From the NCBI GenBank assembly GCA_951406725.2, contig OX597821.1, positions 16,554,001-16,618,000 of the forward strand: a DNA stretch of 64,000 nucleotides. Direction: 5' to 3'. The stretch's first letter is position 1. The number at the start of each line of letters is the position of its first letter. A program made the position numbers and the translations under genes. The stretch comes from Octopus vulgaris. Its lineage: Eukaryota. Positions 46,365 to 62,303 of this stretch are shown one piece after another. The notes below the pieces were generated by a model. The model did no database searches and was not told where the DNA came from. It saw only the letters and a program-made list of their open reading frames with translations.

Positions 46365-46516
46365 TGATAGATCGCTAGCCACTACACATATATTTCTCTC
46401 CTTGTTTCTTTCTGTGCTCCTTTCTGTGGAAGAGCGTAGGCTCGAAACGTTAAATACTTTTTCAATTCCCGAGCGTTATACTAATACATCTGCTTGTTTT
46501 CTACACCACATCTTCT
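46365..46516 (+). mobile_element. Short element with hammerhead-like motif (46421-46454)
   Basis: ttt CTGTGGA a gagc gtag gctc GAA acgt t aaa; related to 19495-19675. Confidence 0.65.
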
Positions 46517-48374
46517 GGATTGTCCTCTCAGTCGTGATGGTCGCATTATTTTCCGAGGTCTATCATGGTTGTTTTCTGATGTTGCTCATAAGATAAGTGT
46601 AGGGGTAATGGTGAGCAAAATGTGCGTTAGAGATAAAAGAGAAGATAAGCAATAACATATAATACAATCAGGCTGACGGTGATGGCGATGATGATGGTGA
46701 TTACGATGATGCTGATGATGATGATGACAAATATCGACGAGAAAGAAGAATATGATGAGGGTGACGACAACGGCAATGCTGAGGAACGGGATGATGATGC
46801 AGTGAAGGACAACGATAAGAATGATGATGTTAACGACAAAGATGACAACTCCGAGGAAGAGGATGATAATAGCGACGTCATTGCGACTATGATGATGATG
46901 ATGATGATGATGACACTGATAAAAACGATGCGGAAGAGGATGATGATGAATATGACGACGACGATGATGATGACGAATATAACGATGATGATGATTATAC
47001 GAACTTAATATGCTGTGAGATCAATGTGCGAAATAAAGAAAGGAAGATTTGCTGGTGTCAATCAATATATTAATTCTTTAAAAATAACAAAAAATAACGC
47101 TTTAAATTGATTTTTGCTTACGTATTTCATTATTTTTCTTTTTAATTCTGCTGTACTGTTTGAGCAACAATTCACAATGCGAAAGAAAAAAATGTAAGTA
47201 GATCAGTATGACTATGTCATTGACAATAAACAGTACATATATTTAATTATTGATGCCCGAAACAGCCTGCATCCCTCACTTTCACATGTACTCTAAGCTA
47301 CAGATATAAGTATAACAAGATTTTTTTAGATTCCACTGTGGTTTGTAACAGAATAGACTCGCAAAAATGCATACAAATATATAGAGAAATACGAGAGCGT
47401 GGCAGCGAAACCTGTTGAGGTTTATTTGTTTACCGTTGTCAAAAGTGTATTTTAACATACAAATATAGTTAAAATTTCATACAAATTATAAATCTATTAT
47501 TTCATGCACATTTCATATATATACACGTGTGTGTACGTTTGCGTGCGCATATGTGAGTGCGAGTGTGATTGAGTGATTGTAACTTGTATTTGTGCGTATG
47601 ATGTGTATATATATATATATATATATATACAATAATATGTTACGTTACACGAGAGTCAAGATGCGAGCGATGTATAAGTACGTAGGCAAGCAGAGTTATA
47701 ACACAGTAATTTCCCTTTATATAACGGTATTTTTTCATAGCGTTTTCAAATAGCCAGATAACCGAAGAGATGGTGTTGTGGATATCCACTTCGGCATCTG
47801 AAACTCAGAGTTTTATCTTGACTATCGAGTAATGTAACATATTATTGTATAGATAAATTTGCTCTATTTACATAATATTGAGGTCTCTTTATTTCTTTTG
47901 TTATCTTACCGTTTTACCAATATATCTATCTATCTATCTATCTATCTATCTATCTATCTATCTATCTATCTATATATATATATATATATATATATATATA
48001 TATATATATATATATATATATATATATAGATATAGATATATATATATAGATATATATATATATATATATATATATATATATATATATATATATATATATA
48101 TATATATATATATATATATATATATATATATATATATATATATATATATATATATATATATATATATATATATATAATATATATAATATAGATATATATA
48201 TATATATATATATATATATATATATATATATATATAGATCAATAAATGGTGGGGTTGTGTTGACCGCACGTGGAGAAATGATATAAGGAAAAATTTTTTT
48301 AAAAATGCAGAATGCTCAAATGAAATAAAATTTAATAAAATGAGAAAATGATAAAATATATAAATATATATATT

Positions 48375-48415
48375 TATTCAACCGGTTTTCGTCAATGTAT
48401 GACTTGTCAAGAATA
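48375..48415 (-). ncRNA. Minimal type I hammerhead-like motif, U3-A8 variant (mirror copy)
   Basis: Reverse complement of 51075-51115. Confidence 0.65.
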
Positions 48416-49048
48416 TTTATGTTTTAAGAAGTTTTTTGAAAATTAGAAAGGGAAAAAAGAAAATTGCAATGTTTTTTGTAAAAGAATAATGATAAAAATG
48501 TACAAAAATTAAAAAATAAGTTCTCCGATACATTGTGAGTTCGTTGTGTATCTTGAGTTTTATGGTTGTTTACCAAAAAGTTATCTTGAGGTGTTAAAAT
48601 CCAAAGGGATTAAGAGCATGTGATGTGTTGTGTTGTTGAATACAGCATGTTGCAGGACAGGAAGTAGTAGTAATTGTGGTCCTGGTTCTTCAGTTCCTGT
48701 GTTGTGAGTAAGGGGAGAAAACTCTTTTGAGTTCTTCAATAAAACCCAAATTATAAAACTATCATTTTAGCTTCATTTGCATTATCTTTTTATATATAAT
48801 TGCTTGTTAACTTAACTTTCAGATTTTAACACTTTATTTATATTATTTTCTAATAATATAAAACTGCATAGACAATTGCATTTCAAATTGTCATATCATT
48901 TATAATAAAAATGATAGTAGTAACAACAACAATAGTGAAAATGATATTTAAAGAATATAAGTTTTAGCTTGAAGTGGTGAATGCATGGTATCTTTATATA
49001 TTTGTGTTAGTCCATCCATGAAGAGTGAGGTAGAGAAAGGAAGTTTGA

Positions 49049-49749
49049 TCAACGAGGAGTTTGCATATTAAGTTGTGTTTGGAATTTTTCAATAAAGAGA
49101 TTCTCCTTGTTAATTCTCTCCTGTGTGGTGATCCCGTCTTTACATTGGTAGAAGGGGAATATATAGAATTTGGGGTTTAAGTCTTTGGCACATGAGTCTA
49201 AGTGGTCACTCAGTGGAATTTGTCGGTATTCCGGGAGATTTATTTGTTCTTTATGCACCGTTACTCGTTTACGTAACGGGAGACTCGTTTGTCCCACATA
49301 ATTATGTTGGCAACCAGCGCATGTGAGAACGTAGATAAGGTTCTCGGAGGAACAGGAGAAGTTAGTCTTGATTTTAAACTTCGTACCTTGTTTGAAGGTA
49401 AATTCAGAGCCTTCAAGTAGAAAGGGCAGGTACCACAGTTTGAGCGTGCACATTTTTTTACTGTTGGGGGTGGATGTGGTGTGTGAAGTTTGGCATTTGT
49501 CAAGAGTTTTTTTAAAGATTTGTGTTGCCTTTTGCATTTGAGGATTTTGTGTGTATTTATAATGTTTTTCATTTTTGGGTCTGTTGACAGTAGACTGAGG
49601 TTTTGTATGATTGTGGTGTATGCTTCGATATTTTTGGGGTTGTGGGTGGAAATGTATGGAAGTATTTTGAGGTTGTGTGTGGTGTTAGGTTGGGTGGTTT
49701 TCAGTGTAGTGCTGTCTAGTTCTTTGGCGCGTTTTATTCCATCATCCAC
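49049..49749 (-). pseudogene. Mirror copy of the GIY-YIG ORF with a 1-nt frameshift near 49425
   Basis: ORFs 49261-49749 and 49049-49537 together give the same protein; GGG here versus GGGG in the right arm. Confidence 0.85.
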
Positions 49750-59941: not shown

Positions 59942-60895
59942 CAGGGTGCGGTGAATATATTGTCGTCTAAATTACGCAAAAATGAAAATAACATCTCATT
60001 TTAATAGATATATTCACCAAAATTGTAAAAAAAAAATATATATATATGACCACAGCTCATTAGCTGAAACTAGATAAAATATAAAATATATATATAAAAT
60101 ATATATATCTTGAAATACCAAAGAGTAAATTTATTCAATAAAATCGGCATTCGATTCAGCCACGTTCTCCAGACGATTTCGAAATCTATTTCAACTCTTC
60201 TGAACAGTCTCCGTGTTTATGTTGGTGAATGCTGCTGTAATCTTTGACTTCAGTTCATCTTCGGTGTTACAAGTGGTTTTGTTGTTCTCTCACTCTACGA
60301 CACATCACACATAGTAATCAAGGGAGTTGCAGTCTGGGTAGTTAGGTGGCCTGATGTTAACGGAAATGTGGTCGTAGAAAATTTCTGTCTATTATGACTG
60401 TTCTCTAAATTGTATGGCATGATGCAGAGTCCTGTTTCCAGACATAAGGACTTCCAGCAGCCACCCTCTTTACCGATAGCAGCACTAACTCCTCCAGGCA
60501 CTTCATGTAGGTCTCCATGTCGAGTGAGAGACCATGTGGGATGATGAATGGAGGAATAAAGTTGTCATCACTTGTGATCACTCCAAACACCATGGTGTTG
60601 ATTGTTGTTTTTTTTTTATCACACTCGGTACATGTCTACAGATTGCAATGTCCTCAGATTGACACCCAAACACTCGGAAATGTTCGAATTAGAGCTTCTG
60701 GCGCGAATGCCAAGCAGTAAAGCATGTCGCTTCCAAATTTCTGTCTGGGTGAGTTGCGTCATTTTGCTTTTTTTCGGACAGACGGTGCCCAACTGACCTT
60801 ACCATACTATGTAGTCGACAATATCAAAAACAAACAATGCACATGCGTGAAGTATTAAAAATATAAATTGTCGACAATTTACCTCTCGCAACCTG
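59942..60895 (-). mobile_element. Internally deleted Tc1/mariner (maT/DD37D-like) element with both TIRs
   Basis: Left cagggtgcggtgaatatattgtcg; right end reverse-complements to caggttgcgagaggtaaattgtcg; minus strand MVFGVITSD..PPFIIPHGL..YVWKQDSASCHT and PDCNSLDYYV; a LINE-type tail is inserted at about 60047-60110. Confidence 0.88.
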
Positions 60896-61310
60896 TGTGT
60901 ATATATGTATATGCATGCACCCCCCACATACAATCACACATATATACATACACACACACACACACACATATATACACACACACACACACACACATATACA
61001 CACACACACATATATACATACCCACACACACATATATACATACCCACACACACATATATATATACATACACACACACATATGTATACATATATATATACA
61101 TACACACACATATACATACACACACACACATATACATACACACACACATATACATACACACACACACACACATATATATATATATACACACACATATATA
61201 CATACACACACACACACATATATACATACACACACATATACATACACACACACATATACATACACACACACACACACACACACACACACATACATATATA
61301 TATATATATA
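60896..61310. repeat. Compound (CA)n/(TA)n microsatellite
   Basis: Direct inspection. Confidence 0.93.
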
Positions 61311-62258
61311 CAAGCGAGAAATATATGACGTTATATCTGCGGAAAGTTATTGCTCTTAGTTTTAACTTAAATAAATAAAAACAGGAATATATAGAAATAT
61401 ATTAACGTGTTGGACGGAAACTTTTTATCCGAAGTTAGAAAAAGATAAGAATATTTTTTTAAATATTTGTAAAAGAAGAAATCTTGGGAAGACGAGTTCC
61501 AGGCACGTATCTCAAAATACGTACGCCAACTATCTACTCCTTTATGCATGTCTGGCAATCTATTTATTTATTCATCTGTATGGGTGCTCGCACGCGCACC
61601 TATGTCAGTGTGTGTGTGTCTGTACCCGCGCGCACGTGTGTCGTCAGGTATAACTGCAAATGCTGTTGTTGACGCCCTGGCATGTTTTTGTGAAAGACTT
61701 TTCATTGTAAAAGGAGAATAAAGAGGAATTTCAGATATCGCATTAACAAACATTGTGCTGAATGTACTTGCCTTTCAATGCATTTGTAAGAAGAAAAGCA
61801 TATATAATATTTCCGTTCATATAATTACGCTTTCAACGCCATAGTGTACAGTTCTTTCCTCGCGTACACACAAAATGCAAAAACACTTACGTCTAAACAA
61901 TCAAACGCATATACGTGAACACAGATACTAACACACACTTCTACGTACACATATGTTCTGTTTTCTCATCTACCTCCAAGGAGATATCTGGACACGATTG
62001 TGGAATACAGCTTATATATATATATATATATATATATATATATATATATATATATATATATATATATATATATATATATATATATATATATATATACGGG
62101 TGTGTGTGATTGTGTATAGAAGAATATATTAAAAGGAATTCCAACCTTGTCTGATTTTCATGTTTTATTTACAATCTTATAATGATATAAGATAGTATAA
62201 TATAATAAAATAAAATAAAATAAAATAATAGAATAGAATCTTAAATGTTCATTCTGAT

Positions 62259-62303
62259 TGAACTAGTACTTTCATGCATTAAATCCGGCAATCTTCAGGT
62301 TCA
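62259..62303 (-). ncRNA. Minimal type I hammerhead motif, canonical CUGAAGA core
   Basis: Minus strand tgaac CTGAAGA t tgc cggatttaat gca t GAA agtact a gttca; palindromic region III. Confidence 0.82.

Follow-up and report, generated by a model that had tools for sequence, protein, structure and literature searches.

Variant-core hammerhead motifs fixed within families of Penelope-like elements in the Octopus vulgaris genome

Analysis of a 64,000-nucleotide stretch of Octopus vulgaris contig OX597821.1 (assembly GCA_951406725.2, positions 16,554,001 to 16,618,000 of the forward strand; hereafter the window) indicated that the nine type I hammerhead-shaped motifs which the original prediction had placed within 16 kb are all present at their predicted positions (Table 1). 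They represent only seven insertion events, since 48375/51075 and 55035/58682 are the two arms of one inverted insertion each. The type I order of core boxes, stems I and II and the A15.1-U16.1/H17 site were found in 9/9 motifs, while 48375/51075 can be fitted to type I only if a bulge or an additional A within the GAAA box is allowed; read with the palindrome first proposed for them, AACCGGUU, they lack nucleotide 17 before stem I. The predicted core boxes were recovered as CUGANGA in four of the nine, GUGAACA in two and UUGACAA in two, while motif 46421 carries a U at position 6 (A6U) that the prediction had left unstated, and an additional A between 9 and 10.1. A short palindromic stem III is perfect in 6/9, imperfect in 53834 and 54810 and an ordinary hairpin in 58888, and a 10.1·11.1 mismatch is present in 53834, 58888 and 62259. 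The surroundings of 53834, 54810 and 58888 yielded no Penelope-like element (PLE) reading frame; near 62259, at a distance of 620 bases, there is an endonuclease remnant whose tie to that motif is unproven.

Table 1. Hammerhead motifs and PLE insertions in the 64-kb window (window coordinates)
Feature	Position	Strand	Remarks
A6U-family copy CUGUUGA	19537..19574	+	outside the 16-kb span
A6U-family copy CUGUUGA	23867..23904	-	outside the 16-kb span
A6U hammerhead CUGUGGA, type I minimal	46421..46454	+	palindrome ACGU, only 3 bp of stem I
Inverted-duplicated, 5'-truncated PLE insertion, U3-A8 family	48233..51211	.	arms 98.5-99% identical to full tandem copy
U3-A8 hammerhead UUGACAA, left arm	48375..48415	-	one U missing at cleavage site
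U3-A8 hammerhead UUGACAA, right arm	51075..51115	+	one U missing at cleavage site
Canonical-core hammerhead CUGAAGA	53834..53946	-	long AU-rich stem II, A·A at 10.1·11.1
Canonical-core hammerhead CUGAUGA	54810..54900	+	long stem II, imperfect palindrome
Inverted-duplicated, 5'-truncated PLE insertion, G3-C8 family	54932..58842	.	97.7% identical to intact copy
G3-C8 hammerhead GUGAACA, left arm	55035..55084	-	extra G between 9 and 10.1, palindrome AAUAUU
G3-C8 hammerhead GUGAACA, right arm	58682..58731	+	stem I 7 bp, stem II 5 bp
Canonical-core hammerhead CUGAUGA	58888..58938	-	U10.1·U11.1, 4-bp stem III with 8-nt loop, repeated family
Canonical-core hammerhead CUGAAGA	62259..62303	-	U10.1·U11.1, palindrome AGUACU, repeated family

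A descriptor in which positions 3 and 8 were left free matched 13 times across 400 kb taken from other parts of the genome, where 10 local shuffles averaged 0.5 matches, and five times in the region. By motif count, 40 sampled 10-kb stretches elsewhere held 38 motifs; 20 of the 40 held none and one held six, which argues against the dense special cluster that had been proposed. Compared with these stretches, the 12 motifs of the 64-kb window correspond to a Poisson p of 0.022, while the p of 2.9e-5 for the 16-kb span alone overstates the enrichment because the span was picked post hoc and motif counts are clumped. The copies in the window are likely for the most part truncated relics piling up in repeat-rich DNA, with no function of the cluster itself, which is of no importance in its own right.

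Chance matching or decay of individual copies is a very improbable explanation of the motifs. A loose descriptor does give false matches when a long stem II is allowed or position 6 is free, single-sequence folding z-scores were unremarkable in eight of the nine motifs folded, and Rfam reports no hammerhead, neither for the variants nor among the best 150 of 485 matches in a scan of the whole window. Weak single-strand z-scores are, however, expected of dimer-type motifs, and the Rfam scans missed canonical-core controls too and are thus uninformative here. The genome-wide family patterns, on the other hand, yielded thousands of near-identical matches (923 to 22,251 for each family) against 0-2 control matches. 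For the three variant families these counts rule out chance or copy-specific decay: their cores are fixed family-wide features.

The U3-A8 family has 923 genome matches, and the U3-A8 pair stands in 100/100 among the matches listed, while N7 among the same 100 is C in 69, U in 17 and A in 14. One stem I pair is compensated, being U-A in 7 and A-U in 5 of 12 distinct rows. The tandem element has a period of ~4.6 kb and carries the hammerhead once per tandem unit, and its insertion in the window retains an RT-end/GIY-YIG frame at 49764-50438 (+). The U missing at the cleavage site of 48375/51075 is present in sister subfamilies; the subfamily of the window, the largest of the U3-A8 subfamilies, amplified recently even though it lacks this U. 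Three decayed relatives of the element yielded no hammerhead in their downstream sequence. U3-A8 cores are already published for PLEs, in Schistosoma Cercyon with about 1,300 hits (PMC4209133), as is the idea of compensation between positions 3 and 8 (PMC4209133, PMC3088659).

The G3-C8 core stands in 5,409 of the 5,966 genome matches of its family pattern. Elsewhere in the genome a PLE whose 1,025-aa RT/GIY-YIG frame is intact carries the motif in its 3' UTR, ~1 kb downstream of that frame, while the insertion in the window has a reading-frame remnant at 56187-57704 (+) with two frame changes, followed by a 3' UTR of about 1 kb with microsatellites inside. Cleavage of the right-arm motif is predicted after U17 at 58724. 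An older homologous family keeps G3-C8 with a different N7, a different loop II and another palindrome length. Pair 2.6:1.6 of stem I is U-A in 24/28 young copies, and G-C in 7 and G-U in 4 of 20 old copies, which were chosen by a pattern that itself demands G3-C8. In contigs of four sequencing runs, recruited by likeness, no single alternative letter reached 3% at position 3 or 8.

Changes at position 3 or 8 inside the G3-C8 family are single and uncompensated. Copies with G3·G8 are linked to a second variant (5/10 vs 3/36, p = 0.007), hinting that a mismatched source copy may also have spread. A search for a compensated C3-G8 sister recovered three C3-G8 copies among 45 double changes, all of them in one old family whose homology to the G3-C8 family outside the motif is unproven. 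An old family sharing stems I and II carries U3·G8 in 12/24 copies and C3-G8 in 1/24. The Watson-Crick covariation of positions 3 and 8 that had been claimed thus compares unrelated families only and was seen within no lineage; the structure-preserving covariation observed is confined to stem I, where two lineages have a single compensated pair each.

The A6U family is the largest counted, with U6 in 21,236 of the 22,251 matches of its pattern. Among the first 100 matches listed, G8 was found in 96, and N7 in the 93 of them with U6 was A in 22, C in 21, G in 13 and U in 37. Copies found by flank alone kept the motif in 16/21 cases and lacked it in 5/21, and C3 and U6 stood in 16/16 of those that kept it. 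Relatives with canonical A6 and the same stem II occur in the same genome. The changes in the G3-C8 and A6U families (about 5,400 and 21,000 copies) are fixed at near-invariant catalytic positions.

In other copies of the U3-A8, G3-C8 and A6U families, the motifs were found in repeats flanking a PLE reading frame, downstream of an RT/GIY-YIG frame; for A6U these are the pLTRs of a tandem PLE elsewhere in the genome (locus L159), in which the motif is repeated once per tandem unit. As to the order RT then C-terminal GIY-YIG, element protein P0001 has a Pfam GIY-YIG match, P0002 has an RVT_1 match and a sub-threshold GIY-YIG, and the A6U element has RT homologues and a GIY-YIG-like C-terminal frame read by eye. 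A CX2-5CxxC linker before the endonuclease, as defined in PMC8557442, can be read in the translations of all three elements, which have a tandem or inverted pseudo-LTR arrangement. By domain order and linker rather than by an RT tree, the three are EN+ PLEs of the Neptune/Nematis type; these share the same RT, C-terminal GIY-YIG and linker, tandem and inverted structure and microsatellite flanks (Craig et al. 2021, PMC8557442). Element proteins of unrelated hammerhead families are 24-28% identical over the main aligned stretches.

The motifs resemble the minimal hammerheads of metazoan PLE pLTRs (Cervera and de la Peña 2014, PMC4209133) in being type I with a short palindromic stem III, in the frequent extra nucleotide between 9 and 10.1, in their position in PLE repeats, and in occurring as inverted pairs and as many families per genome. 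In contrast, the legible aligned examples of Fig. S3 in that work include no G3-C8 or U6 core and no cephalopod, and several families described here have 10.1·11.1 mismatches or a long stem II. Core variants found in nature and capable of activity include U3-A8, U10.1·U11.1, a GAAA box with an insertion and, as a change at position 6, A6C (Perreault et al. 2011, PMC3088659; Naghdi et al. 2020, PMC7151607), with A6C strongly slowing cleavage in Mg2+ (PMC7151607). In those accounts the variants are rare cases, A6C being described from one phage, whereas G3-C8 and A6U are fixed here in thousands of retroelement copies. In the PAc (Poseidon) hammerhead of Anolis (Frangieh et al. 2024, PMC11167929), an engineered C3G/G8C swap partly restores cleavage; that swap was made in the laboratory while the one described here is natural, and PAc belongs to the Penelope/Poseidon clade whereas our three elements have the linker of the Neptune/Nematis type.

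The article texts covered by the literature search contained no natural G3-C8 or A6U hammerhead; the match for a G3-C8 hammerhead was an engineered variant (PMC3884650), and that for hammerhead with A6U was a paper on twister ribozymes (PMC11662667). PLE variants with G3-C8 or U6 could already stand in the key PLE paper of Lünse et al. 2017, in Przybilski and Hammann 2007, or in published figures and bioRxiv supplements. Only tentatively do we propose, from sequence comparison, that octopus PLEs hold natural active G3-C8 ribozymes, in an old and a young family, and natural active A6U ribozymes, with >21,000 copies derived from canonical relatives.

We favour, with a probability of about 0.58, the reading that these are minimal hammerheads of type I, which three of the families carry in PLE terminal repeats, and that the U3-A8, G3-C8 and A6U cores may still be slow ribozymes maintained by selection. 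By cutting, such ribozymes would release unit-length RNA from the tandem transcripts of an element. By analogy with published PLE work, two hammerhead copies in one transcript would pair via the palindromic stem III, or alternatively the element's own protein would help the RNA to fold; the swapped 3-8 pair would stand in for C3-G8, and the cut would fall after nucleotide 17. The role of the hammerhead in PLEs is stated as still open in PMC8557442 and PMC11167929.

A possibility that has to be weighed seriously, though we do not favour it, is that the fold is kept as a protein-binding or structural signal or as a passenger, catalysis being dispensable or lost and the variant cores being tolerated slips. 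Four separate lineages multiplied with changes expected to harm cleavage, namely A6U, the loss of the U at the cut site, the probable G3·G8 subfamily and U3·G8/C3·A8 in an old family. In PLE insertion in vitro, moreover, cleavage is not needed and catalytic mutants insert normally, and in the same study no RNA-seq reads ended at the cleavage site (PMC11167929); Naiad PLEs proliferate without canonical hammerheads (PMC8557442). Against a dispensable catalysis, positions 3, 6 and 8 and the stems are fixed among subfamilies whereas variation is seen at position 7 and in loop II, just as in the catalytic consensus, and G3-C8 needs two transversions that jointly restore exactly the tertiary pair.

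The further suggestion that the different palindromes act as locks confining dimer cleavage to the RNA of each family is unlikely. When duplex stabilities were calculated for the stem III strands of the seven families in the window, self pairing was most stable for six and tied for one, but any collection of distinct palindromes would give the same outcome. Not only the A6U family and its A6 relatives but also an unrelated family have ACGU, which Fig. S3 of PMC4209133 shows again in various species. At -1.7 kcal/mol for ACGU and -0.2 kcal/mol for AAUAUU, self duplexes are too weak to tell families apart by themselves, and cis pairing within a tandem transcript already gives specificity.

If octopus PLEs do run active G3-C8 and A6U ribozymes, these would by design be slowed or dependent on protein, and the U-less or G3·G8 subfamilies would be natural knock-outs for whether PLEs need cleavage; if the G3-C8 and A6U RNAs cut, the known core of natural ribozymes widens. 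The claim of functional family-specific variants that escape a CUGANGA-based search held as far as the motifs are of PLE type and family-specific, with fixed variant cores from which that box is absent, and a single animal genome can contain tens of thousands of motifs that surveys based on it overlook. This genome also offers matched natural comparisons of A6U with A6, of U with no U at the cut site and of G3-C8 with G3·G8, and intact or near-intact protein frames are present and usable for protein-assisted assays.

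Searches with a scripted type I hammerhead descriptor, in which positions 3 and 8 were left unconstrained, retrieved 6/9 of the motifs; 48375 and 51075 were gained once an extra A was tolerated in the GAAA box, and 46421 was located through a family match, so that all nine hammerhead motifs of the original prediction were recovered. The strict descriptor gave 13 matches in 400 kb elsewhere (40 places spread evenly over the 2.8-Gb genome), whereas 10 local shuffles averaged 0.5. The window (G000:C8:16554001-16618000) is full of microsatellites and repeats, and the nearest homologue of one element's protein (57% identity) is from Octopus vulgaris, which makes an octopus the likely host; the motifs are real, of a known kind and lie within ordinary repeat-rich DNA.

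Core boxes of the nine hammerhead motifs, each named by its lower coordinate in the window
Core box	Motifs	n
Canonical	53834, 54810, 58888, 62259	4
UUGACAA	48375, 51075	2
GUGAACA	55035, 58682	2
CUGUGGA	46421	1

Counting family matches together with canonical descriptor matches, 38 motifs were found in the 40 genome stretches (20 were empty and one held six) versus 12 in the window, a density about twice the average (p = 0.022). The claim of a dense cluster was overstated; 48375/51075 and 55035/58682 are each the two arms of one inverted, 5'-truncated Penelope-like element (PLE) insertion, leaving seven insertion events, and the 16-kb span, denser than the window, was picked after the fact.

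What makes these motifs interesting is that two variant cores, G3-C8 and A6U, extend across whole families. A pattern based on the stem II of the G3-C8 family, with positions 3, 7 and 8 free, gave 5,966 genome matches (control, 0), and the G3-C8 state was present in 5,409 (90.7%); 377 lacked C8, 180 had C8 but lacked G3, and 45 lacked both. The long-loop type, that of the window family, comprised 17 of these 45 double changes where about 11 were expected under independence; by count of the matches listed, a Watson-Crick 3-8 pair occurred in 5/17 and C3-G8 in 0/17. Within the G3-C8 family, changes at 3 or 8 are without compensation. A second variant, in stem I, was present in 5/10 G8 copies versus 3/36 others (Fisher p = 0.007), an enrichment that hints at amplification from a G3·G8 source copy and is at odds with strict 3-8 pairing.

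An older family with homologous flanks is likewise G3-C8, with C at position 7 and a different loop II. In 20 of its decayed copies, chosen by loop among the 100 matches listed for a pattern that itself demanded G3-C8, the commonest stem III strand was AAUU (4/20) and pair 2.6:1.6 was G-C in 7/20 and G-U in 4/20, the young family having U-A in 24/28. A third, old family has the same stems I and II, with flanks lacking clear homology; at 24 loci selected blind to positions 3 and 8 (25 matches minus one tandem duplicate) it carried U3·G8 in 12/24, C3·A8 in 3/24 and C3-G8 in 1/24, which argues against strict 3-8 pairing. The commonest stem III strand at the loci of this old family (L169-L215) was AGGACU, an imperfect palindrome that could self-pair through tandem G·A pairs.

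An unbroken 1,025-aa reverse transcriptase/GIY-YIG frame was found at locus L158, whose DNA is 97.7% identical to the window copy, and in other copies a ~1-kb 3' UTR with microsatellites links the endonuclease end to the G3-C8 motif. Such tracts lie within the 3' UTR at L158 and at window 57711-58680 and are duplicated at every insertion. At locus L165 (G000:C2:171238000-171247999) a ~3.4-kb tandem unit, present three times, has on the same strand both a U3-A8 motif and a copy of the G3-C8 motif that reads G3·A8.

The A6U core of 46421 was passed over in the original prediction, and its U6 is fixed family-wide. The family pattern gave 22,251 matches (control, 0), with U6 in 21,236 (95.4%) and another base in 1,015, among the 100 listed of which C predominated. 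Hand counts of the first 100 family matches listed gave U6 in 93 (N7 = A 22, C 21, G 13, U 37) and G8 in 96. A sample of 21 sites, found by the downstream flank alone, had kept the motif in 16/21, with C3 and U6 in 16/16 and G8 in 15/16, and N7 mostly tracked the flank subfamily. CpG decay accounts for only part of the variation at position 7, and a free position 7 with fixed 3, 6 and 8 is the pattern expected under selection on the hammerhead core. Relatives that read canonical A6 but share stem II and ACGU, in flanks resembling those of the family, gave 5,698 matches, so U6 is likely derived; a decayed relative of this kind, with U4 changed to G, lies at window 13391 (midpoint, - strand). 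At locus L159 the A6U motif occurs twice, 4,850 bases apart, enclosing PLE reverse transcriptase and endonuclease frames that are mutually out of frame.

The U3-A8 pattern gave 923 matches (control, 2), with U3-A8 in 100/100 of those listed (N7 = C 69, U 17, A 14) and diverse loops. Full tandem copies have a ~4.6-kb period and 380-aa and 753-aa frames; in both full copies (L162:1541-5310 and L164:4786-8557) the 380-aa frame, which matched nothing in Pfam, lies separately upstream of the 753-aa reverse transcriptase/endonuclease frame. Subfamilies differ by a compensatory change at one stem I pair (U-A 7/12, A-U 5/12 distinct rows), kinship of the rows inflating its shuffle test. Among 20 loci selected to span the subfamilies, the full site, with both palindrome AACCGGUU and U17, was found in 6/6 UUGAUAA copies, 7/9 UUGAAAA motifs and 1/6 UUGACAA copies. 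One U was missing in 35/35 motifs of the 30 loci nearest the window copy, so that the window copies must be inactive or else adopt a register that is bulged or shifted; this subfamily is nevertheless the largest and youngest.

The three host proteins share a CX2-5CxxC linker with Neptune/Nematis PLEs (PMC8557442) and are pairwise 24-28% identical over their main aligned stretches. The three 3-8 states, which had been taken to co-vary, thus belong to unrelated elements and form no covariation series, and that headline too went beyond the data. Cervera and de la Peña 2014 (PMC4209133) already includes U3-A8 and an extra base after 9 among PLE hammerheads, with dimer cleavage, and U3-A8, U10.1·U11.1 and GAAA-box insertions are on record in Perreault 2011 (PMC3088659). 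No natural G3-C8 or A6U hammerhead was found in the text of the literature searched: word searches of PMC6765202, PMC8495972, PMC10085705, PMC13725137 and PMC11014351 and a portion of bioRxiv 10.64898/2026.07.22.740005 gave no case, and a word search of the recent octopus repeat annotation PMC13282606 gave no mention of ribozymes. Either variant may nonetheless be in print already, for instance in Lünse et al. 2017, reportedly a large survey of PLE hammerhead variants.

Published PLE work suggests that a tandem transcript would run through two repeats, that its two hammerheads might pair via their palindromes or fold aided by the element protein, and that a cut after nucleotide 17 would free unit-length RNA. 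That the palindromes also act as family-specific locks, restricting cleavage to each family's own RNA as had been proposed, is very improbable because palindromes are common to several families and the short palindromes form duplexes that are too weak. The inferred G3-C8 cleavage has direct support from the PLE hammerhead of Anolis (PMC11167929), where either single change, C3G or G8C, abolishes cleavage and the two together give partial rescue; that cleavage, however, depended on protein, and insertion in vitro proceeded without it. The sole natural parallel to A6U encountered was A6C, a slow ribozyme in Mg2+ that favours Mn2+ (PMC3088659 and PMC7151607). The variant motifs may be selected slow ribozymes, a reading to which we give a probability of about 0.6. 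Retention of the fold with dispensable catalysis is a less probable explanation, though a serious one. Natural near-knock-outs among the families offer a way to test what hammerheads do for PLEs. Selected slow ribozymes remain our preferred reading.

Other features were observed in the window. An exact 284-base direct repeat (53650-53933 and 54295-54578) includes the 3' half of the 53834 motif; its second copy is without the CUGAAGA box and terminates in a perfect hairpin (54576-54634). A GIY-YIG endonuclease remnant at 62922-63296 (+), 40% identical to the G3-C8 element protein, lies on the strand opposite to the 62259 motif, 620 bases away, and may be the host element of that motif. At 29993-31462 (+) an open frame of 489 aa, with a Pfam RVT_1 reverse transcriptase domain, had no match among the PLE proteins compared. 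Direct copies of an element end at 51242-51959 and 52866-53584 (98-99% identity, open frame) matched nothing in Pfam, carry a short AAAGAGTA-type tail and resemble a LINE 3' end. Further canonical-core hammerhead families were numerous in the sampled DNA (loci L070, L073, L075, L077, L082, L085, L088, L090 and L099), several having a long stem II and a 10.1·11.1 mismatch.
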